A DNA stretch of 63,969 nt, filler included, from an uncultured Gemmatimonadota bacterium (GCA_964576115.1; 3 parts of 3 records of this genome joined end to end with filler, not necessarily neighbours in it), one strand, 5' to 3'; counted from the first letter of the whole stretch, positions 6,847 through 63,969 are shown. Notes: generated by a model from the letters alone, not told the origin. A program made the numbers and translations.

Positions 6847-6847
6847 C

Positions 6848-7204
6848 TCACAGTCCTTTCGGCGAGAGAGCCCGGTTCCGGGCCAGTGAGACGAGGTTTT
6901 CCAGCCGTTCCACTTCCAGGGCCATAACCCTGCGGCCCAGGGAGGTATAGCGGAAGTACTTGCGCCGAGCGTCATCATGGCCATCGCCGGGTTCGAATTC
7001 CTCAACCAATCCGTCGTCCTTGAGCCGCTTCAGGGCCTGATAGAGACTCCCGGTGGTCGGTTTCAGCCTCCCGGCCGTCCGTTCCTCGATCTCTTTGCCG
7101 AGGGCGTAGCCGTGCGAAGCTCCCGAACCCAGGGCCAGAAGGATCTGAAAGGCGAACTCGGAAAGAGGCAGGTAGTGTTCTGGATCTGTCGCCATACCGG
7201 ACAT
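6848..7204 (-). CDS. PadR family transcriptional regulator
   Basis: ILLAL..GASHGYALGKEI, GSLYQALKRL, RRKYFRYT. Confidence 0.9.
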   Translation of the reverse strand: MSGMATDPEHYLPLSEFAFQILLALGSGASHGYALGKEIEERTAGRLKPTTGSLYQALKRLKDDGLVEEFEPGDGHDDARRKYFRYTSLGRRVMALEVERLENLVSLARNRALSPKGL

Positions 7205-7474
7205 GGCTTTCTTCCTTGTCTGTGTCTTCCGGATTCCTCAACTGGTTCCGGTGCAGAAACGGCTCTTTACCGCGTTTCTGCCTCGTGTCCTGTCACGCGA
7301 CATGGCACTCGGGAACGCTGTCATTGTAGTGGCTTTCACTATAGTGAGAATACGATTCAAACTGAGAAAAGGTTCCAGCAGCTCACCGCCGAGTATCCTG
7401 AGTCATGAGTTTGTTGCGGCACACCGGGGATCGTCAATCCGTCCCCACGCGTCACCGCGAACGTGAATATCTCC

Positions 7475-7633
7475 TCACAGCGCCAGCCTATGCCCGCCGT
7501 GCACGAAGAGATGCTCTCCCGTGATCCAGCCGGCCTGCTCCGATGCCAGCCAGAGAACCGCGTCGGCGATGTCCTCGGGGTTGTTGTCGCCGGTGACGAT
7601 GACCACCGCATCGTGCAGACCCGGATCGATCAT
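7475..7633 (-). pseudogene. Internally deleted short-chain dehydrogenase (SDR) remnant, 52 aa
   Basis: Not in the ORF track. Reads MIDPGLHDAVVIVTGDNNPEDIADAVLWLASEQAGWITGEHLFVHGGHRLAL*: an SDR N-terminus fused to the SDR C-terminal motif. GAAGGA SD upstream. Confidence 0.7.
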
Positions 7634-7673
7634 GATGGATTCCTTCAATCAACAGGTCAGGTGAGAGCCTCCC

Positions 7674-8438
7674 TCAACGGTTCCGACTCAGGTCCTTGAG
7701 TTCGATCCTGCGGAACTCGATCGGGTGGGTCTCGGCCTGCAGAGCGATATAGCCGCTTTCGAGCAGAGTCCCTTCGGGCAGGGGAAAGCCCTCGGGCACG
7801 TCGCCCCCGATCTGCGGCTGCTCATAGGTGAAGACAGTATCACCCTCCACAACGTGATAGATGAATCCCGACGAGTGCACATGCATCTCGACCGTGACCC
7901 ACTCGTCGCCAGGAAAGGTTCTCGAGGTTGAGTTGGTGCAGTGCCTGGTGATGAGTTCGCCTTCCATGACCACGTGGGTGCCGGGCGTGCAGACGTTCAG
8001 GGTCGGCCGCTCCCCCTCCCCCGTTCCCCCCAGGAACTGCGCTTCGACCGAAACCGGAAAGTCCTGGTCCAGGAGCATGCTCCGGGCCGACTGGGAATGC
8101 AGCATGGCCCCATTGTTTCTCAAGGCCCAGCCGGGTCCGCCCGCGATCTGCTCGCCCGTGAAGCGGTATTCCACCCGCAGGATGTATTCCGAAAAAGGCT
8201 GGTGATAGAAGATGTGCCCGAACTCCCCTCCCCACGTTCCCTCATAGTCCTCGTAGCTGACTTTGAGCAGCCCGTCCTCGACCCGGAAGATATCCCGGTA
8301 GTTGTCGTTGAGCTCGTGGCCGGAGATCTTGACATCCCAGCCCGAGAGATCGGAACCGTTGAAGAGCTGGATCCAGTCATCCTGAGCGGCACTGCAGCCG
8401 GCCAGAGCGAGCAGGGGGAGCAGGGAGAGATACTTCAT
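7674..8438 (-). CDS. DUF1080 / 3-keto-disaccharide hydrolase family lipoprotein
   Basis: MKYLSLLPLLALAGC lipobox; WIQLFNGSDLSGW; GYIALQAETHPIEFRRIEL. Confidence 0.85.
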   Translation of the reverse strand: MKYLSLLPLLALAGCSAAQDDWIQLFNGSDLSGWDVKISGHELNDNYRDIFRVEDGLLKVSYEDYEGTWGGEFGHIFYHQPFSEYILRVEYRFTGEQIAGGPGWALRNNGAMLHSQSARSMLLDQDFPVSVEAQFLGGTGEGERPTLNVCTPGTHVVMEGELITRHCTNSTSRTFPGDEWVTVEMHVHSSGFIYHVVEGDTVFTYEQPQIGGDVPEGFPLPEGTLLESGYIALQAETHPIEFRRIELKDLSRNR

Positions 8439-8748
8439 GGTGGATTGTACCCTTCGCGTGGCGGTGGCAGTCGGTCGGGCCGAGATGACAGCAGTTCTGT
8501 GCCGATGGGAGGAGTCTATCACTCCACTGCCGGCGATATCCACCACCAGCATCGCTGTTTTCAGACTCGATACCTCAATCGCGGCGGCGGCCGGTGCGAC
8601 GTTCCGATCGGCCAGCCGTTGCTGTTTCCTTCTGCAGAATCGGAAGGGTCAGAGCAGACGCGGTGTTGTTGATACCCGTGTCGGCAGGCAGAGAATCAAT
8701 CCGGACCTCACCTGTTCACGGTATGATGCTTCAACCGATGGCGTTACC

Positions 8749-26487: not shown

Positions 26488-26587
26488 NNNNNNNNNNNNN
26501 NNNNNNNNNNNNNNNNNNNNNNNNNNNNNNNTTAATTAATTAANNNNNNNNNNNNNNNNNNNNNNNNNNNNNNNNNNNNNNNNNNNN
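26488..26587. other. Artificial contig join (N + TTAATTAATTAA + N)
   Basis: 100-bp block centred on a six-frame stop linker at 26532-26543. Confidence 0.95.
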
Positions 26588-29330: not shown

Positions 29331-29430
29331 NNNNNNNNNNNNNNNNNNNNNNNNNNNNNNNNNNNNNNNNNNNNNNNNNNNNNNNNNNNNNNNNNNNNNN
29401 NNNNNNNNNNNNNNNNNNNNNNNNNNNNNN
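29331..29430. other. Assembly gap
   Basis: 100 N. Confidence 0.98.
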
Positions 29431-47992: not shown

Positions 47993-48387
<395 letters not shown>

Positions 48388-52115: not shown

Positions 52116-52215
52116 NNNNNNNNNNNNNNNNNNNNNNNNNNNNNNNNNNNNNNNNNNNNTTAATTAATTAANNNNNNNNNNNNNNNNNNNNNNNNNNNNN
52201 NNNNNNNNNNNNNNN
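52116..52215. other. Artificial contig join (N + TTAATTAATTAA + N)
   Basis: Linker at 52160-52171. Confidence 0.95.
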
Positions 52216-52220
52216 TTCCG

Positions 52221-53060
52221 ATGAGAGAAAACAAGAGGCAGAAGAGATCTCTGGTGGGCATCGAACTGGTACGCCTTCTGGCCTCTGAGGGTGACAGAAT
52301 CTTCACGATTGACAGGGCTCGTGAACTGGCCGGACAGGTCGGACTGGAAGCTTCGTACCTCCGGGAGTCGCTCTACCACCTTCGGAAGACCGGATGGATC
52401 GTCCCCTTGCGTCGGGGGCTGTATGCACTCTCCTCAACCGTCCCGGGAATCACTCCGGCCCATGAGTTCGAAGTCGCCATGGCATTGATTGATCCGGCTG
52501 CCATTTCGCACTGGTCGGCCCTGCATTTCCATGGTTTGACAGATCAGGCACCACGGGACGTCGTCGTTCTGACGACGACGGGGACGTCTATCCCCCGGAT
52601 TCGGGCTGCGAAGGGCAGGCAGAAGCGGAGCGGTTATCCTGTTGGCGATACGTACTACCGGTTCGTTCAGATGAAGCCGGAATGGTTCTTCGGTATCAGG
52701 AAGCAATGGATTGGAGAATCGCGCGTCTCGATCACTGACCCCGAACGAACCCTGCTGGATGGCCTCGCGATGCCGCACTACTGCGGTGATTTCGCCGAAG
52801 TCCTGCATGCCTTCGAGGTTCGAGGGGGGGATCTGGATCTCCCCCTCATCATCAGCTACGCACTGAAGTTGAGCGATGCAATGGTCAAGCGCCTGGGATG
52901 GGTCCTTGAGCACGCAGGTGTCGATGCCGTTCACCTGGAACCTCTCGCCAGAGTTCCCGTCAGGGGATACCGCACGCTCGATCCGAGCGGACCCCGCCGG
53001 GGGCGATGCAATCGCAACTGGATGATCCAGGAAAATCTACCAGGCAAGGTAATGAGATGA
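52221..53060 (+). CDS. Type IV TA antitoxin, AbiEi family
   Basis: N-terminal wHTH (GWIVPLRRGLY), ISHWSALHFHGLTDQ, TDPERTLLD. Confidence 0.88.
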   Translation: MRENKRQKRSLVGIELVRLLASEGDRIFTIDRARELAGQVGLEASYLRESLYHLRKTGWIVPLRRGLYALSSTVPGITPAHEFEVAMALIDPAAISHWSALHFHGLTDQAPRDVVVLTTTGTSIPRIRAAKGRQKRSGYPVGDTYYRFVQMKPEWFFGIRKQWIGESRVSITDPERTLLDGLAMPHYCGDFAEVLHAFEVRGGDLDLPLIISYALKLSDAMVKRLGWVLEHAGVDAVHLEPLARVPVRGYRTLDPSGPRRGRCNRNWMIQENLPGKVMR

Positions 53061-53929
53061 AACCTCTCTACAATCGTCTTCAGGAGGCGCGAAAGCGACT
53101 CGGTCTGCCGTGGGAGGTGCTGGAGCGTGACTATGTTCAATCGTGGATCCTTGGAGGCATCGGTCGGGTGGCGAACCTTCGGGATGTACTCGTGCTTAAA
53201 GGAGGTACTGCTCTCAGAAAATGCTATTTCGGAGACTATCGTCTCTCAGAGGATCTGGACTTCACAGGCCTTGAGGGTGTGCCTGTGGGAACGGGGATGG
53301 AGGACACGATCGAAGAGGTCTGTAGTGAGGCCACAGTATTGCTTGAGGAATATGCAGCGGTGGAGATCACCTCTGAAAGATACACCGAGAGGGAACCTCA
53401 TCCAGCCGGGCAGGAGGCGTTTGTCATTCGCGTACGTCTGCCGTGGCATCGACGACCGCAGATTCGGGTCATGATTGAAATCACAGTTGATGAACCGGTG
53501 CAAAGGCGGGTTCAGCAGCGAAAGATCCTGCATGATTTCGGTGAACCGCTTGAGGAGTCGGTCGGAGTCTATTCGCTGGAGGAGATTATTGCTGAGAAGC
53601 TCCGGGCGATCCTGCAATATGTCCGGATACTGGAGGAGAAAGGCTGGAGCCGTTCCCGGGCACGGGATTTTTACGATCTCTGGAGGATCCTGAACACCTA
53701 TGCCGATCAGTTGAACCTCACCGGATTCGAAGACTTTCTCTCCGCAAAATGCGTCGTGCGGGATGTCTCTTTCAGCTCTCCTGAGGACTTCTTTCCGGAA
53801 GCCGCACTCTATCATGTGGAGAACACCTGGGAACAGTGGCTCGGCCCGCTCGTACCTTCGTTACCATCCTATGAAACAGTAATCGGTCAACTTCGTTCTC
53901 TGATATCTGACTTGCTCGAAGATTCCTGA
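53057..53929 (+). CDS. Type IV TA toxin, AbiEii/AbiGii nucleotidyltransferase
   Basis: LERDY, LKGGTALRKCY, RLSEDLDF, AEKLRA, RARDFYDL; ATGA overlap with the antitoxin. Confidence 0.92.
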   Translation: MKPLYNRLQEARKRLGLPWEVLERDYVQSWILGGIGRVANLRDVLVLKGGTALRKCYFGDYRLSEDLDFTGLEGVPVGTGMEDTIEEVCSEATVLLEEYAAVEITSERYTEREPHPAGQEAFVIRVRLPWHRRPQIRVMIEITVDEPVQRRVQQRKILHDFGEPLEESVGVYSLEEIIAEKLRAILQYVRILEEKGWSRSRARDFYDLWRILNTYADQLNLTGFEDFLSAKCVVRDVSFSSPEDFFPEAALYHVENTWEQWLGPLVPSLPSYETVIGQLRSLISDLLEDS

Positions 53930-53998
53930 TGGGGTGTCAAGAACATGCCCGCCAGACATTGACTTGACGGGCGATGCGAAGATGAGAATAAACTAGAC

Positions 53999-54034
53999 TG
54001 GAGGCGGCACCCCGGCCCGCGCCTTATACGGGTT
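53999..54034 (-). repeat. att-like site C: tRNA-Cys 3' end + conserved motif
   Basis: Plus strand TGGAGGCGGCACCCCGG-CCCGC-GCCTTATACGGGTT; tRNA part has one extra C. Confidence 0.85.
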
Positions 54035-54071
54035 TTCGGTGCTACTGTGAGAGCGACATTGCAGCCTGCCA

Positions 54072-54097
54072 CACCCGGCCCCCGCCTTATACGGGTT
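54072..54097 (-). repeat. att-like site B (degenerate tRNA part)
   Basis: CACCCGG-CCCCC-GCCTTATACGGGTT; motif 63 bp from site C. Confidence 0.8.
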
Positions 54098-54200
54098 TGA
54101 GGTGCATCTGTAGGGTGGGGAGGCAGGATCTCCGGACTGTCAGACTCTCGTCCACTCAGAGATGAGTATACGGTACTGGCAATGACTTCATCAGTAGTCG

Positions 54201-55244
54201 CTACATGTTCACACTTCCGGGCACGAGCAGTTCGATCGCGAACTCGAGCTGAAGGTCCCGCCCGGCGGCGATATCGGCTGCCGTATTGACCACCCTGATA
54301 TCGGGGGGCACTCCGTTCCATTCGATCGGCTCGCCGTCGTAGCGGCGGATGTCAAGGTAGTTGATCTCGAACCGCTTCCCGCTGGGCAGGACGAGCCGGC
54401 TCGTGTCCGGGATTGTGCCGCCGATCCCCCCGCCCCCGGTGGTGTCGCCGATCGCGGTCACCTGGGGGAGCTGTTTGAGCATCTCGGTGCAGAGTTCCCC
54501 GGCGCTGAAGGTCAGGCCGCTGATCAGAACCACCACGGGGTTCGTGTACGCCTGAGTGCTCCGCGGTTGCAGGGGGGTGAGCGGGAGCGCTTCACCGTCG
54601 GAGATGAACGTCAGCCAGGGCAGGGGCGCGGTGAGAAAGCACGAGACGACGGCGGCGATATTCGCGGTCGAGCCGCCGACCCGCTGCCGGATGTCGATGA
54701 TCACCCCCGCAGTGTTCCGCATCCGCCGGATGACGGAAGGAAAGTCGTTGATGAGGAAATCCTCATGGAAATCGGCCAGGAAGATGTAGCCTATGTTATC
54801 GGGGAGGATCCCGTATTCGATCTTCCCGCTCGGTGAGAGCTCCAGATCGCGGCTGAAGTACTCTCTGACCACGAATGGATTGTAGAGTCCCTGATCTCGT
54901 CGGCGACGGGGAGGTACCCACGGATACCGTTCACTCCCCCCCGGGGTCATGTAACGCACATGACCGTCCTTGAGCTCATACAGCAATTCGTGCAGGACGC
55001 GGTAGAACTCATCCCCCCGGGCCGCTTCGGCACGCGGCAGATACACGGTGTAGAGGGAATCCCAGTCGATGCCCTTGAACTCGAAGCAGGGGTAGTACTC
55101 ATCCACGGTTGACCAGACCGCCTCGAAATCTTCGACGTTCAGGTTCTCCCCCGGCGGTTTCACGATCAGGTCGGTACAGGCCGTCACGCCGAGAGCCAGC
55201 AGGAACAGGCCGAGACGTCCAGCCACTGCTATCCGTCCTCTCAT
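54201..55244 (-). CDS. S41 family peptidase lipoprotein
   Basis: GVTAC lipobox, ELKDGH, IGYI, IIDIR..VGG, TFSAGE, IGDTTGGG, GVPPD. Confidence 0.9.
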   Translation of the reverse strand: MRGRIAVAGRLGLFLLALGVTACTDLIVKPPGENLNVEDFEAVWSTVDEYYPCFEFKGIDWDSLYTVYLPRAEAARGDEFYRVLHELLYELKDGHVRYMTPGGSERYPWVPPRRRRDQGLYNPFVVREYFSRDLELSPSGKIEYGILPDNIGYIFLADFHEDFLINDFPSVIRRMRNTAGVIIDIRQRVGGSTANIAAVVSCFLTAPLPWLTFISDGEALPLTPLQPRSTQAYTNPVVVLISGLTFSAGELCTEMLKQLPQVTAIGDTTGGGGIGGTIPDTSRLVLPSGKRFEINYLDIRRYDGEPIEWNGVPPDIRVVNTAADIAAGRDLQLEFAIELLVPGSVNM

Positions 55245-55245
55245 C

Positions 55246-56037
55246 TCAGAAACTCCAGGTCAGACCGGCCAGGATCGTATCGCTGGTGGCCAGGAGTGGA
55301 ATCCAGGGCGTGATCCGCGTGAGCGTGAACTGATAGGCAAGCCGGCCGCTGAACGCCGCCGATAGCCGGTAGCGCAGTCCCAGCCTCAGCGAGGCATTCG
55401 TTCCCGCCAGTGCCGTCAGCAGTTTCGGGGCAGTGGCGTCATCACTCGTCTCGTCGTCAACCGCGCGGATTCCCAGAGAAAGGAATCCGGCCTGCAACAG
55501 GCCTTCGACACCCAGTTTCGATGATAGTGGCATGACGAGTTCGGCGCGGACTCCGAGGGAAAGAAGTGCAGAAACCGACAGGCCGAATCCAAGGGCGGAG
55601 ACCGCCAGATCCTGCGTGTTCATCAGGATGAATATCTCGCTGCAGGGACCCAGGAAAAGGTGAAGATCCCGACCGAACAACACCATGCGCGGCAGGGGAT
55701 AGAGGAAGCCCTGGATGAACGAGAACTGGGTGATCGCGGTCTTGACGGAGTAGTTACGTATTTCCGACGAGGTCCGGGCTTCCAGGCCGAGCTGGTAGAC
55801 AGCCTTTTCATGGGCGCGGCTCCAGTTCAAACGCACATACGGCAGGGTGCCGGAATATTTCTCGGTTGAGAAGTACTCGTCGATAACCGCATATGAGCCG
55901 AGGCCGTATTCGGCCGTGATGCCGGTACCAAGCAGGGCCGCGGAGGAAATCTCCTGGCTAGCGGCATGACCGGACGGCAGGAGAAAACCGAGGCACGTGA
56001 CGAGGGAGAGCACATTAAGGGAGCGAATTCGTTCCAC
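55246..56037 (-). CDS. Putative outer-membrane beta-barrel protein
   Basis: Signal peptide, alternating amphipathic strands, C-terminal LAGLTWSF signature; Y.G motif after FS.EK. Confidence 0.6.
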   Translation of the reverse strand: MERIRSLNVLSLVTCLGFLLPSGHAASQEISSAALLGTGITAEYGLGSYAVIDEYFSTEKYSGTLPYVRLNWSRAHEKAVYQLGLEARTSSEIRNYSVKTAITQFSFIQGFLYPLPRMVLFGRDLHLFLGPCSEIFILMNTQDLAVSALGFGLSVSALLSLGVRAELVMPLSSKLGVEGLLQAGFLSLGIRAVDDETSDDATAPKLLTALAGTNASLRLGLRYRLSAAFSGRLAYQFTLTRITPWIPLLATSDTILAGLTWSF

Positions 56038-56305
56038 TATCCAGGAACCTCAGAGAAAGGTGTGAACATCCCGACCGCTGGTCGGATTCATACACCTGTT
56101 ACGGGAAAGAATACCACCAGGTTCTGGTCAAGCGCAGAAAGCGTGCTTCAGTGACCGACAAATGGCGTAACCATGCGGGTTTATGTAAAGTGAATTCACC
56201 TCCTGAAAGCCCCTTGAGGCTATGTTAAGTAAAATAGAAGTGAATTGAGATGGCCTCTTCCACCATCATTTGGAGCCATCGATCTTCCTGAAAATTTTCC
56301 AGTTC

Positions 56306-56339
56306 GAGGCGGCACCCGGCCCCCCGCCTTATACGGGTT
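56306..56339 (-). repeat. att-like site A: tRNA-Cys 3' end + conserved motif
   Basis: GAGGCGGCACCCGG (14 bp identical to tRNA-Cys)-CCCCCC-GCCTTATACGGGTT. Confidence 0.85.
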
Positions 56340-56486
56340 CTGCATCAGTCTGTGAGAACTCACTGCAGGTTTGCCCCGCGAATCATCTATTTCTTTAATC
56401 ACATCGCTGGTCATTGACAAGATCTTGAGCGAAGATACCAGGTTCTCCTGCGTGCTCCCACGATGGCCGGGGCGGGCATCTTTCCC

Positions 56487-56531
56487 TTGACAAAGTGGCT
56501 AGACCTCATTATTAGAGAACGGGTGTTCTCT
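56487..56531 (+). promoter_or_regulatory. Promoter and palindromic operator of the TetR gene
   Basis: TTGACA-17-TATTAG, then AGAGAAC-GGGT-GTTCTCT (56514-56531) abutting the ATG. Confidence 0.7.
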
Positions 56532-56532
56532 T

Positions 56533-57123
56533 ATGCAGATACTCAAAGATGAATTACGGCAGAGGATCATGGCGGAAGCTCTTGAGGCCTTTTATGAAAA
56601 AGGCTATGAGAAGGCATCCATGAGGGATTTGGCCCGCAGGGTGGGAACCAGCGTCAGCAACATCTATCACTATTTTTCAAACAAAGAAGAGTTGTTCAGC
56701 GCCCTCGCGGAGCCCATCGCACAAAGGGTGAAGCAGGTTCTCGAGGAGATCATCGCCCATGAGGCACAAAGTGCTACCGAGTTAGTGGAGGAGGAATACG
56801 TCACGCAGGCACTTGGCGAGGTAATCAAAGGGCACCGGAGGGAGTTCCTTCTGCTCATGGACAGGAGTGGCGGTACCCGCTTCGAGAATATCAGGGTGGA
56901 GATCATCAAAGCCTTGGCAACCCACATCCTCCAACGCCACCTCAGTGACAGCAGCGACGTACGCCATCCGCAGGATACCTTTATCATGCACGTTCTCGCC
57001 TCCAATCTGATCGAGGCCCTTATCGAGATAGCACAACACTGTCGTGATGAGAGAGAAATCGATTGCAGCATACGTTCATTGATGAAGTACCACCTTGGAG
57101 GAGTCGCGCATCTCATGAGCTGA
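56533..57123 (+). CDS. TetR/AcrR family regulator
   Basis: FYEKGYEKASMRDLARRVGTSVSNIYHYFSNKEELF. Confidence 0.95.
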   Translation: MQILKDELRQRIMAEALEAFYEKGYEKASMRDLARRVGTSVSNIYHYFSNKEELFSALAEPIAQRVKQVLEEIIAHEAQSATELVEEEYVTQALGEVIKGHRREFLLLMDRSGGTRFENIRVEIIKALATHILQRHLSDSSDVRHPQDTFIMHVLASNLIEALIEIAQHCRDEREIDCSIRSLMKYHLGGVAHLMS

Positions 57124-57145
57124 TCTCTTTTTTTTACTAAATAAA

Positions 57146-57157
57146 GAACACATGTTC
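57146..57157. promoter_or_regulatory. Second GAAC-N4-GTTC operator copy
   Basis: GAACACATGTTC upstream of the NmrA gene. Confidence 0.55.
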
Positions 57158-57191
57158 ATTAATGAGTGTTTGATAAGTAAGGGGCAGTGCT

Positions 57192-57235
57192 NNNNNNNNN
57201 NNNNNNNNNNNNNNNNNNNNNNNNNNNNNNNNNNN
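57192..57235. other. Assembly gap
   Basis: 44 N. Confidence 0.98.
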
Positions 57236-57247
57236 GAAGGACGGAGG

Positions 57248-58174
57248 ATGATTCAGACTGAAAAACGTGTGGCCGCACCTGTCATTTCAGTGCTTGGAGG
57301 AACCAGACATGTCGGTATCCCCTATATCAGAGAGTTCCTTGCCCATGGTCTGAAGGTGAAGATATTGGCGCGTTCACCCAAACGCGTTGCGGAGCGTTTC
57401 CCCAGGGCTGAGGTCTTTCAAGGAAGCATGATGAATGCGGATGATGTGAGGAAGGTGGTTGAGGGTGTGGACGGTGCCTTTCTTATCACGCCTATCGGTG
57501 GGAATGATAATGCGGACCTTGAAATCAGAGCGGCCACGGCTGCCATCACCGCGTCTCAGATTACCCGTTTGCCCCACCTTATATTCTGCTCTGTGATCCA
57601 ATCCGACCAGATAACCGGCGTACCATTGCTGGATGTGAAACTCTCGATCGAACGGCTGATCAGGGAAAGCGGCCTGCCGTGGTCGGCTCTTCGCACCGGG
57701 TGCTACATGGAGGACTGGCTGGAGTTCAAACCGTCGCTGCTGAAAAAGGGAATCTACTTTTTCCCGATCCGGTCTGCGCACCAACTCAGTTTTACATCCC
57801 AACGGGATGTATCACGGGTCGCAGTTTCATTACTGAGAATAAACAAGGTTCTCTATGGCCCCCTGGATGTCATCGAGCCGGTCACCCGCACCCTCGATGA
57901 GGTGGCCCGGCTTTTCGGTGAATATCTGGGGCGGAAGGTCGTGCACGCCGGTGGTTCTTTGCTACCCATTTTGAAGGTGCTGCAGCCCGTGGTGTTTCGA
58001 TGGCTCAAGCCCGTATTGGCCTCCAAGGTTCGCCTGGCGACGTATCTCGACTCTCATGACTGGTGTGGAGACCCGTCACAGCTCGCCCGGGTTCTACCGG
58101 AATTTCAAGTGACCTCTCTGGATCAATACCTGGCACACAGGTATGAAAATCTCACGATCACGCAGGGCATGTGA
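57248..58174 (+). CDS. NmrA-family NAD(P)-binding protein
   Basis: VLGGTRHVG, LARSP, GVDGAFLIT, K..IE..IRESGLPW.ALR.G.YME. Confidence 0.85.
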   Translation: MIQTEKRVAAPVISVLGGTRHVGIPYIREFLAHGLKVKILARSPKRVAERFPRAEVFQGSMMNADDVRKVVEGVDGAFLITPIGGNDNADLEIRAATAAITASQITRLPHLIFCSVIQSDQITGVPLLDVKLSIERLIRESGLPWSALRTGCYMEDWLEFKPSLLKKGIYFFPIRSAHQLSFTSQRDVSRVAVSLLRINKVLYGPLDVIEPVTRTLDEVARLFGEYLGRKVVHAGGSLLPILKVLQPVVFRWLKPVLASKVRLATYLDSHDWCGDPSQLARVLPEFQVTSLDQYLAHRYENLTITQGM

Positions 58175-58244
58175 CAGCCCACCATGAATAAATACCCGAC
58201 TCGGGGACTCTACCTCTGCCGATGCCTTCACAAAGGGTGTTGAT

Positions 58245-58811
58245 ATGGCAACGATATTCTCTCGCCTTTGTCACCTTGTCAGGGGCCTGAAGCTGCTAGC
58301 TGGTGCAGGTCTTCACCTGCTCCTGACGGGAGTTATCATTGAGGGCATCACTTTTGGCCTGAATCAATGGATTTCCATCCCTCTCAACCTGACCGGAGGG
58401 GCGCAGGTGGTTCTATCAGTTCCCTTTATCACCATATGCCTGTCAGGCCTGATATGGTTCAATCGAACGCTGAACCTGCCCGGAGTCTTTCTGTCTCACA
58501 GGGCGCACGAGTTGATCACTCATGGCCCTTTCTCCTATGTGCGACATCCACTCTATGCAACGCTCATACTCACCATCCCACCCCTGGTGATCATCTGGTG
58601 TTCGGATCTTCTCTTCACCATTCCATGGTTTCTCATAGTGATTGTCTCTCATCGTATCGTGCTCTATGAGGAGAGGGTCCTGCTTGAGATATTCGGTGAG
58701 GATTACGCAAGGTACATAAAGCATGTTCCAGCACTTATTCCCTTCGTGGGCACCGGTCGGCATTGTCAGCGAAGAAACAGAAATGCCTCCTCCACAAGCT
58801 CAAGAGCGTAG
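58245..58811 (+). CDS. Isoprenylcysteine carboxylmethyltransferase/PEMT family membrane protein
   Basis: LITHGPFSYVRHPLY, EERVLLEIFGEDYARY...VPALIP. Confidence 0.85.
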   Translation: MATIFSRLCHLVRGLKLLAGAGLHLLLTGVIIEGITFGLNQWISIPLNLTGGAQVVLSVPFITICLSGLIWFNRTLNLPGVFLSHRAHELITHGPFSYVRHPLYATLILTIPPLVIIWCSDLLFTIPWFLIVIVSHRIVLYEERVLLEIFGEDYARYIKHVPALIPFVGTGRHCQRRNRNASSTSSRA

Positions 58812-58877
58812 AGGTAACTTTCTTCTGGTGTGTAATTCCGATTGTTGGAGATAGCGGCGCTGTATGCCGTCTAAGGC

Positions 58878-58953
58878 TGGAGGCGGCACCCGGACTCGAA
58901 CCGGGGAATAGAGGTTTTGCAGACCTCCGCCTTAGCCACTTGGCTATGCCGCC
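58878..58953 (-). tRNA. tRNA-Cys(GCA)
   Basis: GGCGGCA acceptor stem, GAGGT-CT-GCA-AA-ACCTC, CCCGG-TTCGAGT-CCGGG, U73 discriminator, CCA. Confidence 0.97.
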
Positions 58954-59050
58954 TCGCAAGAGGATGTGCTCTGGGCACCGACGTACAAGATGAGTTGAAG
59001 TATGGAAGGGGACAACACGAAAGCTCGAACGCTTCCGGCTGTGAGATCAT

Positions 59051-59338
59051 AGTAGAATTATTAGATATATCTAATACTAATATATATTATAAAACAACAA
59101 TTAGTTCTTATAAATACATATATGTTATTTATAGTGATTATAAATCATATTAGGTGTAATTATGTGTCCATAAGGCATTTTTATATTCTGACAAGGCACA
59201 TGTGGTGAGCCCTAAATGACGTATAATCAAGTATATGGCGTATTAGATTGTTATATGGCTTTTATGAAATCTTAATAGAATTAATAAAGGTTATATAAAG
59301 ATATGATAGTTTCATAAAGGGTTATCTAGTACTGATAT
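59051..59338. other. Very AT-rich non-coding block with clustered palindromes
   Basis: 17 G+C in the 110 bp 59051-59160; perfect palindromes at 59059-59076 and 59078-59089. Confidence 0.85.
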
Positions 59339-59610
59339 GGCACAACAAGCTCGGTCAATCCCGGGATTCACGGATCAGGGAACAGATTATCATCGGGGTG
59401 AGAGGGGCTGGAAGCATCGGACAGGTCTCTGTGAGACATTCGTGAAGCCGGTGAAACGCCCCTATTGTGTTCTGAGACCGCCGACATTAATATGGTACCT
59501 TCCTTCATCTTTAGGAGGCCCACCCACCGTGTGACATCAGCCGGCCGCTTTCACCTGTCAGCGACAGGGTGTCGTGGAGGTGTACGGTCGCAGGCAGGAG
59601 GAACCCCGCC

Positions 59611-60819
59611 ATCAAGGACGTCTTCCAAAAGAGTTATGAGCCGGGCGGCCATTTCGGTCCTTTCCGGATGCAGGGAGATACCTATTTCTCCCAGCCGGTC
59701 CTCGAAGGACCCGCCGGCCCCCATGTGGTCTTCCGCGGCAAGGAAGTCCTCAACTGGTCGATCAACAGTTACCTGGGGCTGACCGGCAACCCCGAGATAC
59801 TGGAAGCGGTCCAGAAGACTCTGGCCGAGTACAGCACGGCTTCGCCGATGGGCTCGCGGATGCTGACCGGGAATACGCCGCAGCACATCGAGCTCGAGGA
59901 ACGGTTCGCCGAGTTCATGGGCAAAGAAGCGGCGGTCGTCTTCAATTACGGCTACATGGGTGTACTCGGAACGGTAAGCGCGCTGGTTCACGAGGATGAC
60001 ATCGTTCTCTACGACCGCATCGCCCACGCCTGTATTCACGACGCCGTGGTGATGTGCCGGGGCGAGCGCCGGGTCTTTCAGCACAACGACATGGAGCACC
60101 TCGAGGCGCGCCTGCAGAAGGCCCGTGACAACCACGACGGCGGATTGCTTATCGCCGTCGAGGGCGTCTACGGCATGACCGGCGATATCGCGCCTCTGCC
60201 CCAGATGTGTGAACTGGCCGAGAAGTACGGCGCCCGGACCTTCGTGGACGACGCCCATGGCTTTGGTGTCATGGGCCCGACCGGTCAGGGAGCAGCCGAA
60301 CACTTCGGCATGGCCGATAAGGTCGACCTGGCCTTCGGGACCTTCGCCAAGGCCTTCGCCGCCATCGGCGGAGTGGTGGCAGGCCCCAAGCAGGTCATCG
60401 ATTACATCCGCTACAACGCCCGCACCAATGTCTTCGCCAAGAGCCTGCCGATGGTCTACGTCACCGCCGTCGGCAAGGCTCTGGAGATCATGACCCGCGA
60501 TTCGAGCCTGCGCGACCGCATGTGGGAGGTCACCCACCGCCTGCAGGGCGGTCTGCGCGAACTCGGCTTCGACCTGGGCAACACCGAATCTCCGGTCACT
60601 CCGGTCTACGTGCCGGCCGGCGACATCGAGGTCGGCATGGGGATGGTGAAGATCCTGCGCGAGGAGTTCGGGGTCTTCGTTTCCGGTGTCATGTACCCGG
60701 TCGTCCCGAAGGGGATCATCCTCTTCCGGCTCATCCCGACCGCGGCCCACACCGACGAGGATGTGGACCGGACCCTGCATGCCTTCGAGCAGATGGGCCA
60801 GCGGATGGGTGTGATCTGA
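59611..60819 (+). CDS. PLP-dependent alpha-oxoamine synthase, probable cysteate acyltransferase (capnine/sulfonolipid type)
   Basis: NWSINSYLGL, HACIHD, HND, VDDAHG, GTFAK (PLP Lys), NVFAKSLPM, YPVVPKGIILFRLIPTAAHT. Start at ATC 59611 (strong SD) or GTG 59569. Confidence 0.8.
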   Translation: MKDVFQKSYEPGGHFGPFRMQGDTYFSQPVLEGPAGPHVVFRGKEVLNWSINSYLGLTGNPEILEAVQKTLAEYSTASPMGSRMLTGNTPQHIELEERFAEFMGKEAAVVFNYGYMGVLGTVSALVHEDDIVLYDRIAHACIHDAVVMCRGERRVFQHNDMEHLEARLQKARDNHDGGLLIAVEGVYGMTGDIAPLPQMCELAEKYGARTFVDDAHGFGVMGPTGQGAAEHFGMADKVDLAFGTFAKAFAAIGGVVAGPKQVIDYIRYNARTNVFAKSLPMVYVTAVGKALEIMTRDSSLRDRMWEVTHRLQGGLRELGFDLGNTESPVTPVYVPAGDIEVGMGMVKILREEFGVFVSGVMYPVVPKGIILFRLIPTAAHTDEDVDRTLHAFEQMGQRMGVI

Positions 60820-60879
60820 CATAACTGAATCGTCGGAGCCCGGCTCCACGGATCCGCCCGTGGCGGGTACCCGACAGGT

Positions 60880-63800
60880 TCAGCGAGTGATATGCAGGAG
60901 GGCGGACCGCTCGGTGCGCTCTCCTGTTGTTGTATCGGTCAGGGTGATGGTGACCAGGTAGGTCCCTTCGCTCGATTCGTCGGGGAAGACCACCCGCTGC
61001 CATTCCACCGCCCGGGTGCTGATCCCTTCTCGTTCGAAACGCAGGGTCACCGTACCCTCGTCCTGACGCCGGCCGATCAGGCGTCCGAGAGCGTCCACGA
61101 AGTCGGCCAGTACGCTCTGCTCCCGATCGATGCCGGTGATGCTGTAGGCCAGCTCGTAGGTCACAGTGCCGTATTCGTCCCGGTTCAGACCGTAGACCTC
61201 GAAATAGAGATAGATCGGCAGCTTGCGCCGGATGTGCTGTCCCGCATAGGGGAAGACCGCCGCATCGCCCCGGGCAAACCAGGTATCCGTCGGCAGGGAG
61301 GCAGCCTCTTCGAGCGGCAGTACCTCCCGGGCCAGAACCAGGCTGGAGAGGCGGGGAGCGTCGACGAGGGACCGGGCCAGGGTATCGTGTCCGGCCCAGG
61401 CGGGCTCACCGGCGATATCGGGCAGCAGTTCGACGGCGATGTACCGGATGCGGCCGGCTCCGGTCGGAGCCGTCATGGTGGGGGTGATCCACGTATTCTG
61501 CGTGGGGGTGAAGAACGCTCCGGTGGGCAGGGCGAGGGTATCCTGTCTGACCCGATACCAGCCTTCATCGAGCAGGACGATCGTGGCCCGGTCGGTCGGC
61601 GCCCGGGGCTCGCGTCCGAGCGGGGCGGTCAGCAGGGGCAGGTTCACCACCCCCACGAACTCTTCCCGCTCGGCCCGGTTTTCGAAGCGGTACCAGGTGG
61701 TGGTCAGGGGATTCACGACGGGGGCACCGATGACCCGGTCGAGATCGGGGACCTCGTCGGCGTACTCGGCGTATTCCGACGCGCTGGAGACCAGACGATC
61801 CCCATACCTTTCGGCTGAATCATCCCAGATCGGCCAGAAGATCAGGTTTCCACTGGTGTAGCCGCCCCCGAAGGTGAAGATCTTCTCGCCGTAGGTCCAC
61901 GTCTCGCTCGGAAAGGAAAAGCGCATTCGAGCAGCACTCTCAGGATTGGGCATGTTTCTGAAGCCGCCGCCCATCCGGCTCTCGAGGTTGGAGAGCGAAC
62001 TCGAGACCTGGTCGGGCTCGCCGTAGCGCAGGTAGACCCGGCCGCGCACGGTGTCCCAGCCGCGCAGACCGAGTTCGGGGACGGCATAGTGCCAGCTGAT
62101 CCAGGCCAGACGGCGGTACTGTTCGAGCAGTCGCTCGTTCACGGGGGTGGAGAAGAGGATGTCCTCGCTGCGCCAGTACCGGTTGGTGGCCGAGGTATCT
62201 AAGGCCGTCATGACCCCGGTGACCGGGGTGTCGATCGTGATTCCGCCTTCGGCAGGCGCGATCGACCAGCGGGGATCGCGGGCGATGGCGACCTTCTCGA
62301 CCGAGAGGGCGGTCAGGGCCGCTTCGTAGCTCTCCTGAGCCTCGGCCAGCCGGCTGAGACTCTGCAGGGCCAGCCCCCGGCCCAGGAATGCTTCGGGAGT
62401 GTGGGTGCCGTGCTCGATGAGGTAGTTCATGACCGGCAGGACCGCACTCCAGTCCTCGGTCCGGTAGGCGTTCAGAACCGCGTCGGCACCCATGTACCAG
62501 GTGGCGAGCAGGTTATCGGGATCGCAGGTCAGGGCCCGGTTGATGTATTCATGGGCTTCGGTCCGGAACTCGGCGGCGGTGGTGGCCTCCTCGCCGTGCG
62601 CGGTCTGGGCCCAGCTCGAACCGTGCCAGCCCAGGCCGTAGAGCAGGGTCAGGCGCATCTGGGCTTTGAGGGCGTAGGCGTCGGCGATCCCGGGCTGTTC
62701 CTCGAGTACCCTGTCGCAGGCCAGATCGCTGTACAGGCCGAAGGTGCGGTTGTAGAGGATCCGGGCCAGGGTCATGCGGTAGCGGGCGTCGCCGGGATCG
62801 AGCCGGATGGCCTGACGGGCGCGCTCTTCGGCCAGTTGACGGGAACCGGGTTCGCCCAGGGCCAGCAGAACGATGGCATCCAGGTGCCAGGCTTCGGGTT
62901 CGCGCAACAGCTCGCGGCGCAGCTGTTGGTCCAGTATGGCATGGGCCTCTGTGAGTTGACCCGACGCCAGCAGATCCCTTATCCGGCCGAGGGTGCCGGT
63001 ATAGAGCAGGGCGGCATCCTCGGGGGTGAGCCAGCTGCGGTTGCCGCCTCTCACTTCGGCCTCGGCACCCGCGGCTCCCAGACCGGCGATCTCGGCCTCG
63101 GTCAAGAGCAGGGTGGGATCGTAGACCGCCGTGTTCCGTTCGGCGAGCAGTTCTTCGACCTTGCGGCCGGGAGGGGGGGCGGTCTGGTCGGGATAGCCGG
63201 CCATGGGGACGTTCGTGGTGGGGGCGTCGAGGATCAGCGGCCGGGTTCCCCCCGAGGCGGGTCCGCACTCGGGCAGGGGGGCCAGGCCGGGGGCCACGCT
63301 CTCGCGCAGGAACTCCCCGGCTTGCCCGACCAGGTCGAGCAGGGCGGCCAGGGTGACGGGGTGCAGGTCGAGCCGCAGGCGCCAGGCCGCCGCGGCCCGC
63401 AGGCTGTCCGCGGATGAGGTGTTCCGAGCCAGATCGATCAGGACCTGTCTTTCGTGCCCAGTCAGGGCCTCGGGGCGACGGGTCCGGTGCACCAGGGGAT
63501 CGACGACATAGCCGTAGGCGCTGCGCAGGAAGAAAGAGATGTGCCAGGAGGCGCCTGCCAGCAGGGGGTGGTCCAAAGCCGCCATGCGCACGCTCTCGAC
63601 CGGATCGTAGAACCAGGTCAGATAGGGGGCATCCCGAAATGAACTCTCCTCGATCCGGGTAGGCGGACCGTACAGGATGAAGGCCTCCCGGCGATCGTCG
63701 GGCAGGTAGCAGCCGGGGAAGATGAGCTGGAAATCGGCGATCTCACGCCGGCCCTCGAAGAGTTCGAAGAATTCGTTGCGCGGCGTGCCGGGGGTGGGAT

Positions 63801-63969
63801 CGCGTGCGGCCCAGAAGGCATCCAGGGCCGTGTCGAGTTCGGCGTCCGAAGAGCGGGCCGCTCGACGGATCTCTTTCATCTCATCCGGTTCGGCGATCAG
63901 CGCCAGATCGTCGAGCAGGGTGCCGTAGACGTCTTCAAGCAGGTCCGCCGAGCGGTGGGCACACCCCGA
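60880..63969 (-). CDS. GWxTD-domain/TPR protein, 5'-partial
   Basis: GWDTVRGRVYLRYGEPD plus an earlier degenerate copy (FWAARDPTPGTPRNE...ILYGPP), TPRs, C-terminal beta domain (YLYFEVYGL). Frame open to the window end. Confidence 0.8.
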   Translation of the reverse strand, partial: SGCAHRSADLLEDVYGTLLDDLALIAEPDEMKEIRRAARSSDAELDTALDAFWAARDPTPGTPRNEFFELFEGRREIADFQLIFPGCYLPDDRREAFILYGPPTRIEESSFRDAPYLTWFYDPVESVRMAALDHPLLAGASWHISFFLRSAYGYVVDPLVHRTRRPEALTGHERQVLIDLARNTSSADSLRAAAAWRLRLDLHPVTLAALLDLVGQAGEFLRESVAPGLAPLPECGPASGGTRPLILDAPTTNVPMAGYPDQTAPPPGRKVEELLAERNTAVYDPTLLLTEAEIAGLGAAGAEAEVRGGNRSWLTPEDAALLYTGTLGRIRDLLASGQLTEAHAILDQQLRRELLREPEAWHLDAIVLLALGEPGSRQLAEERARQAIRLDPGDARYRMTLARILYNRTFGLYSDLACDRVLEEQPGIADAYALKAQMRLTLLYGLGWHGSSWAQTAHGEEATTAAEFRTEAHEYINRALTCDPDNLLATWYMGADAVLNAYRTEDWSAVLPVMNYLIEHGTHTPEAFLGRGLALQSLSRLAEAQESYEAALTALSVEKVAIARDPRWSIAPAEGGITIDTPVTGVMTALDTSATNRYWRSEDILFSTPVNERLLEQYRRLAWISWHYAVPELGLRGWDTVRGRVYLRYGEPDQVSSSLSNLESRMGGGFRNMPNPESAARMRFSFPSETWTYGEKIFTFGGGYTSGNLIFWPIWDDSAERYGDRLVSSASEYAEYADEVPDLDRVIGAPVVNPLTTTWYRFENRAEREEFVGVVNLPLLTAPLGREPRAPTDRATIVLLDEGWYRVRQDTLALPTGAFFTPTQNTWITPTMTAPTGAGRIRYIAVELLPDIAGEPAWAGHDTLARSLVDAPRLSSLVLAREVLPLEEAASLPTDTWFARGDAAVFPYAGQHIRRKLPIYLYFEVYGLNRDEYGTVTYELAYSITGIDREQSVLADFVDALGRLIGRRQDEGTVTLRFEREGISTRAVEWQRVVFPDESSEGTYLVTITLTDTTTGERTERSALLHITR

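Follow-up and report, generated by a model that had tools for sequence, protein, structure and literature searches.

How do small groups of unrelated genes that encode no recombinase of their own come to stand in a row behind one transfer RNA gene? The question is raised by a stretch of 63,969 nucleotides, filler included (the window), from an uncultured Gemmatimonadota bacterium (GCA_964576115.1), in which the modules behind tRNA-Cys(GCA) are separated by a recurring composite site made of a conserved arm and a copy of the tRNA 3' end. The initial annotation read this as a family of minimal cassettes, inserted one after another at a tRNA by a recombinase acting in trans. We compared the site and its surroundings with metagenome contigs and species genomes, and found it in co-oriented arrays that lack recombinase genes, that are headed in three places by an intact tRNA-Cys, and in which identical cassettes have different neighbours. 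The proposal thus appears to be largely borne out by the comparative evidence, with the mechanism itself unproven.

A conserved arm joined to a copy of the tRNA-Cys tail

Read in tRNA orientation, the site is about 52 nt long, and its consensus consists of yCACAG, 12 nt, AAYCCGTATAAGGCG, (C/G)GGG(C/T)C and CGGGGTGCCGCCTC, usually followed by CA. We use S for the conserved arm of about 38 nt (yCACAG, 12 nt, AAYCCGTATAAGGCG and the G-run) and T for the copied last 14-17 nt of tRNA-Cys. The final 14 nt of the tRNA before CCA are CCGGGTGCCGCCTC. In the window the 14-mer AACCCGTATAAGGC is present exactly three times, always on the minus strand (54021-54034, 54084-54097 and 56326-56339), a count reached by none of 100 dinucleotide-preserving shuffles (mean 0.17), which agrees with the three copies first reported. 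The composite of motif, G-run and tRNA tail described in the initial annotation is found in two of them, here called C and A, in which the G-run is followed by a sequence identical to the tRNA-Cys tail; copy A terminates in CTCCA and copy C in CTCGA. Its reach had been understated, since a repeat search of the window delimits a 52-nt family at 54001-54052, 54064-54115 and 56306-56357, and the weaker similarity seen beyond the motif (the CTGTGAGA block) is the conserved yCACAG element. Copy B was rightly noted as lacking a proper tRNA tail and runs on as GGGTGTGGCAGGCTG.

A search that allowed three substitutions in the 15-mer gave 58 candidates in 26 sources, of which 54 are real copies: 41 of standard form, 11 variant first copies of a doublet and 2 that have lost the tRNA tail, the other 4 being chance matches. 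The real copies are spread over 19 metagenome contigs and four of the nine species genomes of a small uncultured phylum whose records are labelled Gemmatimonadota; the order, class and phylum of one of these genomes (G003) hold the same nine genomes, and it therefore belongs to a small phylum-level clade in that taxonomy. Alignment of the 41 standard copies gave a single block of about 52 columns, 10 of which are invariant while 23 reach 90% conservation or more; beyond the block nothing is conserved. The doublet seen in the window occurs in 10 further places.

The distribution of the site is narrow. Scanning metagenome contigs with the 14-mer plus CCGGG gave 25 loci, 19 of them with the full composite site; L001, L009, L010, L012, L014 and L019 were rejected as chance matches. 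A scan of 185,579 species genomes gave nine loci, six of which are in three metagenome-assembled genomes (MAGs) labelled Gemmatimonadota (G001, G002, G003) and three in other phyla (L027, L032, L033), with about four chance matches expected by estimate. Within the phylum, the exact 15-mer occurs in three of nine genomes with at most six matches per genome, reversed-pattern controls giving none, and a looser arm-plus-tail pattern adds G008 as the fourth. The strict site pattern had no match in a viral contig collection, where four matches to the loose pattern lacked site context and were dismissed as chance.

The site does not behave as a structured RNA. A search of Rfam (E≤5) returned tRNA only and the site fits no Rfam family; folding energies compared with shuffles gave z-scores from -1.44 to +0.80, none significant; and RNAalifold proposed four pairs on the site with no compensatory change. 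We also considered a hairpin or pseudoknot in which the 7 nt left of the 15-mer pair with CGGGGTG, along with inner and acceptor-like helices, and rejected it, with pairing in 80.9% of cells compared to 80.0% in shuffles. Compensatory changes turned up in isolated cases (L016-5031, L020-6534); taken over all copies, covariation did not exceed that of shuffles. The site is conserved as sequence, as expected of a protein-binding DNA site. From the anticodon loop on, it parallels the 3' half of tRNA-Cys in length and at a few positions (AACC..TAT), and it may have arisen from that half.

Arrays are co-oriented and in three places start at tRNA-Cys

Adjacent sites more than 200 nt apart have the same orientation in 18 of 18 pairs (17 of 17 without the probable chance match L050-10245), at spacings from 663 to 3945 nt (median 1.9 kb). 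L006 and contig G003:C6 contain four sites each, L020 and L023 each have three cassette boundaries, and L017 has two doublets. Genes between the sites are found on both strands. In G003:C6 (L047) the sites separate single large genes (GH95, fucosidase, MacB-type permease and GH127) and fall in convergent, divergent and tandem intergenic spaces alike, so that they do not act as an expression signal that goes with the ends of genes. The initial annotation had named a dispersed repeat unrelated to tRNA fragments as an outcome that would refute it; instead the motif was always part of a composite site with a tRNA-Cys tail, at module boundaries and in co-oriented arrays. Misassembly, the other concern, does not explain the arrangement either: it recurs as a whole in L025 (99.46% identical over 11,509 nt) and in L004 (99.39% identical over 9,135 nt), and being reproduced by these independent assemblies it is not an artefact.

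An intact tRNA-Cys heads an array in the window, in G003:C78 and in G008:C3, and the window gene is 100% identical to that of G007 and G008 and 99% to that of G004, G005 and G003. In G003:C78 (L048) the tRNA gene (2885-2959) is followed by a Ser/Thr kinase cassette and a doublet at 5732/5795. In G008:C3 diverged copies of S-T are found 2.3 and 7.1 kb behind tRNA-Cys, with a beta-propeller protein, a beta-lactamase-family protein and an outer membrane protein (OMP) as cargo, while in G008:C49 a terminal S-T adjoins core DNA of 67% GC. GC content falls at tRNA-Cys from 0.69-0.72 to 0.52-0.64 in G008 and from about 0.61 to 0.51-0.55 in G003. G007 has a plain 28/29-nt repeat of the tRNA-Cys 3' end, without S, 0.8 kb behind the gene. 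The content behind tRNA-Cys is thus variable, as had been predicted: TetR, NmrA and methyltransferase, then an OMP-like protein with an S41 peptidase, then AbiE in the window, compared to the kinase in G003 and the propeller, beta-lactamase-family and OMP genes in G008. Upstream of tRNA-Cys we found an aminotransferase (window, G004, G005), a symporter (G003) or GDPD (G008), and no recombinase.

Other tRNA genes occur near some of these sites. A 1.7-kb Na/sulphate-symporter gene stands between tRNA-Gly and tRNA-Cys in G003:C78 (L048 1063-2959), and contigs of other organisms at the tRNA-Cys locus have a tRNA 3' end directly before tRNA-Cys (loose ends at L025 4770-4772). L017 contains two intact tRNA-Val(TAC) genes 2.57 kb apart (4114-8650, oriented), each with the same upstream stretch of about 130 nt and with a sulphur-transport gene and a gene resembling a low-molecular-weight phosphatase between them. 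A third tRNA-Val copy in L017, its 5' part only, adjoins an S doublet, and tRNA-Val 5' fragments also precede a site in L015, L020, L021 and L023.

Cassettes have changed neighbours at the site

Gene order is not fixed, and identical cassettes are found with different neighbours on different contigs. The flank left of the site is common and the right one unlike in L003/L006-1409/L052 (300 nt, 85-94% identical), L006-223/L047-5415 on G003:C6 (202 nt, 88%) and L013/L018 (69 nt, 100%). The reverse, a common right flank with unlike left flanks, was seen in L006-223/L021-4088 (273 nt), L013/L015/L020-6534 (135-161 nt) and, for the AbiE genes, between window site A and L055-262 on G001:C553 (216 nt, 86%). 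Homology between shared cassettes stops in the tRNA-tail part of the site, at ...GCCGCCTC(C).

The sequences that follow the sites, here called leaders, could be classified for 40 of the 41 aligned copies. Type D accounts for 8 of 40 by a strict pattern (several more keep the D hairpin), type xAAC (GAACTGGGG...) for 9, ATTATACGCCCC for 4 and other sequences for 19. The D-type leader is the sequence behind the intact tRNA-Cys of G003: local alignment of the site-A leader of the window with that flank scored 19, reached by none of 2000 shuffles. The tRNA flank of G008 was rejected as a match, as 311 of 2000 shuffles reached the score, and the D-type match to G003 was preferred. In the same way, ATAATATACGCCCC is found behind the intact tRNA-Cys of G004 and G005 and behind S-T in 4 of 40 sites. 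Since leaders match the flanks of intact tRNA-Cys genes, many S-T junctions are attR-like, composed of arm, tRNA tail and former tRNA flank, and several such junctions can share one array. This fits cassettes that carry a flank in their attP, or a capture of DNA that once stood beside tRNA-Cys.

No recombinase is linked to the arrays

A hidden Markov model (HMM) of tyrosine recombinases was built from 11 local seeds of G001-G003, all 11 of which were recovered in leave-one-out runs at E≤4e-30. It gave no match at E≤10 among 2046 six-frame open reading frames (ORFs) taken from the whole window and from 27 loci with the site (199 kb; about 263 kb with the window), and none among 387 from the tRNA-Cys loci of five relatives (L076-L080). 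No array examined thus encodes a tyrosine recombinase, in line with the initial annotation. Individual Pfam scans of 40 ORFs contained no recombinase; for the metagenome loci, these 40 were the ones covered for serine, DDE and HUH enzymes. A pooled scan of 98 ORFs had none among the 25 commonest of its 145 families, in which singletons do not appear. PF00589 had 14 matches in G001-G003, none on a site-bearing contig, and PF00239 had none in these three genomes.

The tyrosine recombinases of G001-G003 comprise two Xer-like orthologue groups, and the rest stand beside tRNA-Ser, Arg and Ala. We rejected the extra ones as the site enzyme; they resemble Xer and not IntI, and S-T is missing from their surroundings. 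One family resembling the gene on G003:C198 occurs in five of the nine genomes, often in several copies, just 5' of tRNA-Arg, Met, Lys or Ser. Its members are tyrosine recombinases of about 300 aa, co-directional with tRNA-Arg, Met and Ser and with one near tRNA-Lys; copies are on G007:C143, C37 and C256, G003:C185 and C198, and G001:C440 (L081-L090), several of them at contig ends. In the loci examined, which are short, no repeats of a tRNA 3' end were found downstream of these genes, and no member was at tRNA-Cys. This family is a plausible candidate for the source of a helper recombinase.

Integron integrases are also present in the phylum, with 448-490 bits compared to the TIGR02249 cut-off of 265, in four of the nine genomes (L097-L100: G004:C400:4214-5158, G007:C384:301-1245, G008:C55:152-1093 and G009:C19:759-1700). 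All four contigs end 12-758 nt past the 3' end of intI. By eye, the short tails in G007 and G009 look like small ORFs of toxin-antitoxin type, which would suggest cassette arrays downstream of intI there. No S or T motifs were found on the IntI contigs, and the genomes with IntI and those with S-T overlap in G008 only.

Twenty public sequencing runs contain part of the stretch; in another four nearly the whole of it is present, and these may be its source. Four of the runs with a part were examined, all as short Logan contigs of low depth. Runs X7 and X8 cover cassettes 2 and 3 of the window and not cassette 1, a non-coverage that is uninformative. In one X7 contig (1647 nt), 1.4 kb of dissimilar DNA adjoins the start of cassette 2. 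A contig of X8 (1780 nt, from another organism) has a joint that goes back 102 nt at the doublet (L025 9627-9728, window 54003-54104), which indicates an extra repeat unit, with three copies in a row.

Serial insertion and the explanations that compete with it

On balance we think it probable that the region is an island anchored on tRNA-Cys and composed of small integrase-less cassettes, added serially and site-specifically by a trans-acting recombinase. Each cassette would comprise a short leader, the S-T site as an attP-type end of about 52 nt and, between them, from one to three genes of either orientation. A recombinase encoded elsewhere, most likely a tyrosine recombinase, would join the S-T of a circular cassette to the identical T at the tRNA 3' end. 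This would leave the tRNA intact, place the new cassette directly behind it and displace older cassettes outward, giving a co-oriented array that closes with S-T and the former tRNA flank. The DNA between any two T-bearing sites should be excisable and movable likewise, which would explain the leaders copied from the flank of an intact tRNA-Cys. We infer the crossover within T (CCGGGTGCCGCCTC), the circular intermediates and the trans-acting enzyme.

Several observations weigh against this explanation. The 63-nt doublet, whose first copy has no tRNA tail, is kept in 11 places and is not explained by simple serial integration. One orthologous cassette end is in G007 a true 28/29-nt tRNA-Cys 3' fragment with an intact T-arm (L076 12290-12345), and its G008 counterpart has a diverged S-like arm and tail (L077 2190-2246), so that the site forms appear to interconvert in a way that the model does not predict. 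At the junction next to the tRNA in the window, CCA|GCCTTAGACGG, the sequence fits no recurring leader type, so that the newest cassette has a private leader. Arrays that have no tRNA on their contig, such as G003:C6, are assumed to continue a tRNA-Cys array, and homologous recombination between the 50-nt repeats could give part of the shuffling. While the comparative evidence largely bears out the insertion of cassettes in trans proposed in the initial annotation, the recombinase and the excised circle that it called for were not found, nor was an empty site: no integrase is beside tRNA-Cys in six loci examined, no recombinase is linked to the site in the MAGs and loci examined, and the contigs of the four runs, short and of low depth, show at the sites no circle junction, empty site or deletion joint. 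The genomes are incomplete MAGs throughout, and a gene missing from them is weak evidence.

The cassettes might instead be dead remnants of ordinary island growth, in which full-size elements with an integrase (phage-like, tycheposon-like, or integrative and conjugative or mobilizable elements, ICEs or IMEs) inserted at tRNA-Cys and decayed to cargo and attR scars. The parts of the published accounts considered here document both processes, namely tandem elements split by partial tRNAs with degenerated remnants pushed into the island (10.1101/2020.12.28.424599), and decay to cis-mobilizable elements (CIMEs; PMC5704250). The phylum has tyrosine recombinases next to tRNA-Ser, Arg, Ala, Met and Lys, and G007 has its plain tRNA-Cys repeat without S. 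However, about 263 kb of arrays contain no integrase fragment at a permissive threshold and with working controls. Decay scars should erode, whereas 33 columns of the S arm keep at least 90% conservation over 41 copies on many contigs. Many of the cassettes consist of one gene of 0.7-2.7 kb, and one cassette recurs intact beside new neighbours, which makes decay of larger elements an unlikely origin.

It is very improbable that the site is a lineage-specific intergenic repeat, such as a terminator or RNA-processing module derived from the tRNA-Cys 3' end, that spread by homologous recombination or gene conversion and has nothing to do with mobility. Sites do always lie between genes, the D-type leader resembles the hairpin terminator of the tRNA itself, and identical 50-nt repeats are substrates for homologous recombination. 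Such a repeat would not be expected at the low copy number found with the exact 15-mer, nor clustered and co-oriented in every pair whatever the gene orientation, in convergent, divergent and tandem spaces alike; the site also has no significant fold, its covariation is no better than in controls, and the arrays are foreign in GC content and start at a tRNA. We consider it highly unlikely, too, that the sites represent an unusual form of attC belonging to a true integron served by the IntI of the phylum. The co-oriented arrays, small cassettes and toxin-antitoxin cargo would suit an integron, and one of the four IntI genomes above the TIGR02249 cut-off, G008, has S-T. But three of the four S-T genomes (G001, G002, G003) have no detected IntI, three IntI genomes (G004, G007, G009) have no S-T match, and the IntI contigs themselves are free of S and T motifs. 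Moreover, the site has no dyad symmetry, hairpin or GTTRRRY/RYYYAAC end pair (the attC consensus), both strands carry cassette genes, and one cassette includes a regulator of its own.

Serial insertion by a trans-acting recombinase may be extended to a wider reading, which is possible but rather doubtful: the phylum would run a second gene-capture system, unrelated to integrons, with tRNA-Cys as the analogue of attI, the 52-nt site as the analogue of attC, and a dedicated recombinase encoded elsewhere that captures, stacks and reshuffles single genes, including chromosomal genes between two sites. If this is true, integrons are not the sole bacterial route to ordered libraries of accessory genes. 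The cargo observed comprises toxin-antitoxin pairs, regulators with their enzymes, glycoside hydrolases, kinases and transporters. Because both the 52-nt site, with its invariant 15-mer, and its target are defined, one could proceed directly to assay recombination and to look for the enzyme. Cassette arrays also explain why MAG assemblies of the phylum break behind tRNA-Cys and at cassette ends, and S-T is a practical marker to delimit horizontally acquired genes in these genomes.

The array of the window and its surroundings

The features of the locus are collected in Table 1. The window joins contigs of one MAG, with artificial joins at 26488-26587 and 52116-52215 (the latter made up of N, ttaattaattaa and N) and 100-N gaps at 29331 and 48159; the contig with the array spans 52216-63969. 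A run of 44 N at 57192-57235, between the TetR and NmrA genes, is a mask and not a gap: L025 has there a low-complexity repeat of CCTTCC(G/A)T type (tRNA orientation) and equal length.

Table 1. Features of the tRNA-Cys locus, ordered from the core genome toward the contig edge (window coordinates; site sequences in tRNA orientation).
Feature	Position	Strand	Basis and remarks
Alpha-oxoamine-synthase-like aminotransferase, core-genome neighbour	59569-60819	+	Translation; proximal limit of island
AT-rich stretch, GC about 0.32	59040-59340		Composition; just 5' of tRNA-Cys
tRNA-Cys(GCA), array anchor	58878-58953	-	ARAGORN; Rfam RF00005, 64.9 bits
Cassette 1, tRNA-adjacent	56358-58877	-	Pfam; GC 0.42-0.56
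PEMT/ICMT-type methyltransferase, cassette 1	58245-58811	+	Pfam
NmrA-like protein, cassette 1	57249-58174	+	Pfam
TetR, cassette 1	56533-57123	+	Pfam
Site C, single standard copy	56304-56357	-	TCTCACAG, 10 nt, AACCCGTATAAGGCG, GGGGG, CCGGGTGCCGCCTC, GA; row 1 of site alignment
Cassette 2	54119-56303	-	Leader starts GAACTGG, xAAC class
263-aa DUF3316-like or OMP-like protein, cassette 2	55246-56037	-	Feature resemblance only
S41 peptidase, cassette 2	54201-55244	-	Pfam
Site B, variant first copy of 63-nt-period doublet	54060-54118	-	Same 15-mer; tRNA tail replaced by GGGTGTGGCAGGCTGCAATGTCG
Site A, standard second copy of doublet	53999-54059	-	Ends in CCGGGGTGCCGCCTCCA
D-type leader, copy of sequence and hairpin behind intact G003 tRNA-Cys	53940-53998	-	Local alignment
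Cassette 3, cut off by contig edge	52216-53939	-	Pfam
AbiEii, cassette 3	53006-53929	+	Pfam
AbiEi, cassette 3	52221-53060	+	Pfam

The gene content given in the initial annotation was confirmed by Pfam for TetR, NmrA, the methyltransferase, S41 and the AbiE pair. Its outer membrane protein has no Pfam match, and resembles DUF3316 clusters by features only. The AbiE pair, which had been placed beyond the last site, is a third cassette, because its homologue in G001:C553 (L055) is a complete 2.0-kb cassette closed by sites on both sides, at 262 and 2266. The window contig stops about 200 nt short of the expected distal site, and the assembly probably broke at the repeat there.

GC content is 0.42-0.62 between 52.2 and 59.4 kb, down to 0.32 in the AT-rich part, and 0.63-0.74 in the core flank past about 59.8 kb. 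The AT-rich part is probably the promoter region of tRNA-Cys, outside the array; promoter-like hexamers on its minus strand are no commoner than in shuffles, and a promoter and terminator scan of the array region gave nothing above shuffles. G003 likewise has an AT-rich tract 5' of tRNA-Cys, and the genome of the window has about 65% GC overall. The aminotransferase is found at the same place upstream of tRNA-Cys in G004 and G005, with about 75% amino acid identity. A minus-strand ORF over it (59551-60849) is a shadow frame of the high GC content, the plus-strand gene being the real one, and a minus-strand ORF of 999 aa at 60880-63879, with weak TPR matches only, may be spurious. Elsewhere in the window, within 48259-48387, tRNA-Ser(GGA) lies with its 3' side 37 nt from a contig edge, on a contig of 3.9 kb whose GC content (0.60) is below that of its neighbours. 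Here, too, the assembly may have broken at an island anchored on a tRNA.

Comparison with known systems

Integrons and clusters of attC sites lacking integrases (CALINs) are co-oriented arrays of small cassettes with the recombinase encoded outside the cassettes, and their attC sites are imperfect hairpins with paired R''/R' core sites (RYYYAAC...GTTRRRY). The arrays described here share with them the co-orientation of small unrelated cassettes, a recurring site of recombination type, toxin-antitoxin cargo and the absence of a recombinase from the cassettes. Unlike integrons, they lack an adjacent IntI and an attI, and neither an attC hairpin nor attC core sites are present, the site termini failing to match the core motifs; the site is conserved in sequence and derived from a tRNA, and the anchor is a tRNA gene. 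The integron-like array of the initial annotation therefore holds as an analogy, in the co-oriented small cassettes, but lacks attC structure, has genes on both strands, and is separated from IntI, which is on other contigs and mostly in other genomes. Dispersed repeats of other kinds (repetitive extragenic palindromes, bacterial interspersed mosaic elements and miniature inverted-repeat transposable elements) are scattered, in both orientations and palindromic, whereas there are at most six exact 15-mers per genome here, clustered, co-oriented and with no supported fold. Xer/pdif modules are flanked by 28-bp dif-like sites in alternating orientation. Here all sites have the same orientation, and inspection by eye, with no dif model run, showed no half-site like the XerD arm.

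Islands specific for ssrA in Dehalococcoides reportedly have their own recombinase and are much larger. The excerpted description of these islands has integration at one small RNA gene with reuse of the same site (PMC3146451), and the repeated use of one small RNA gene is what they have in common with the tRNA-Cys arrays. In the tycheposon islands of Prochlorococcus, as far as the portion of the account considered here describes them, a tRNA stands at the proximal end, partial tRNAs lie inside, and successive integrations displace older material outward (10.1101/2020.12.28.424599). An intact proximal tRNA, internal partial tRNA copies, deviating GC content (window, G003 and G008) and adaptive or defensive cargo are found here as well. 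By the same portion of that account, tycheposons carry their own tyrosine recombinase and their partial tRNAs mark elements or debris; here there is none, and every boundary has the same arm-plus-tail site.

Alongside tycheposon-type island growth, the closest parallel is accretion at tRNA genes in Firmicutes (the ICESt1/ICESt3 family and tRNA-Lys of S. agalactiae), where, in the sections of the source that concern CIMEs, att-flanked elements without an integrase are stacked at the target gene, are thought to move by the integrase of another element, and are described as decayed ICEs or IMEs (PMC5704250). The concept of integrase-less, att-flanked elements stacked at a tRNA is, on those sections, already published as CIME accretion (PMC5704250). 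The tRNA-Cys cassettes agree with CIMEs, so described, in having no genes for integration or transfer, in att sites from the 3' end of the target and in their tandem position at it. CIMEs, according to the same sections, are found singly or paired beside a related autonomous element, whereas an autonomous relative with a cognate integrase and the same att was not found at the six tRNA-Cys loci or on any site-bearing contig of these incomplete MAGs. They differ further from the CIMEs of those sections in the number of sites (at least 54), in arrays of at least four sites, in the many single-gene cassettes and in a 38-nt arm conserved across a small phylum. We did not find this system in the literature on gemmatimonad integrons and attC sites or on tandem tRNA-Cys islands, which is no proof of absence. 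It is best filed as an integron-like variant of accretion at a tRNA by elements without an integrase, rather than as an integron. What sets it apart is how regular the arrays are, how strongly the arm and its invariant 15-mer are conserved, the occurrence of cassettes with one gene, and more than 50 boundaries without integrase genes or fragments.

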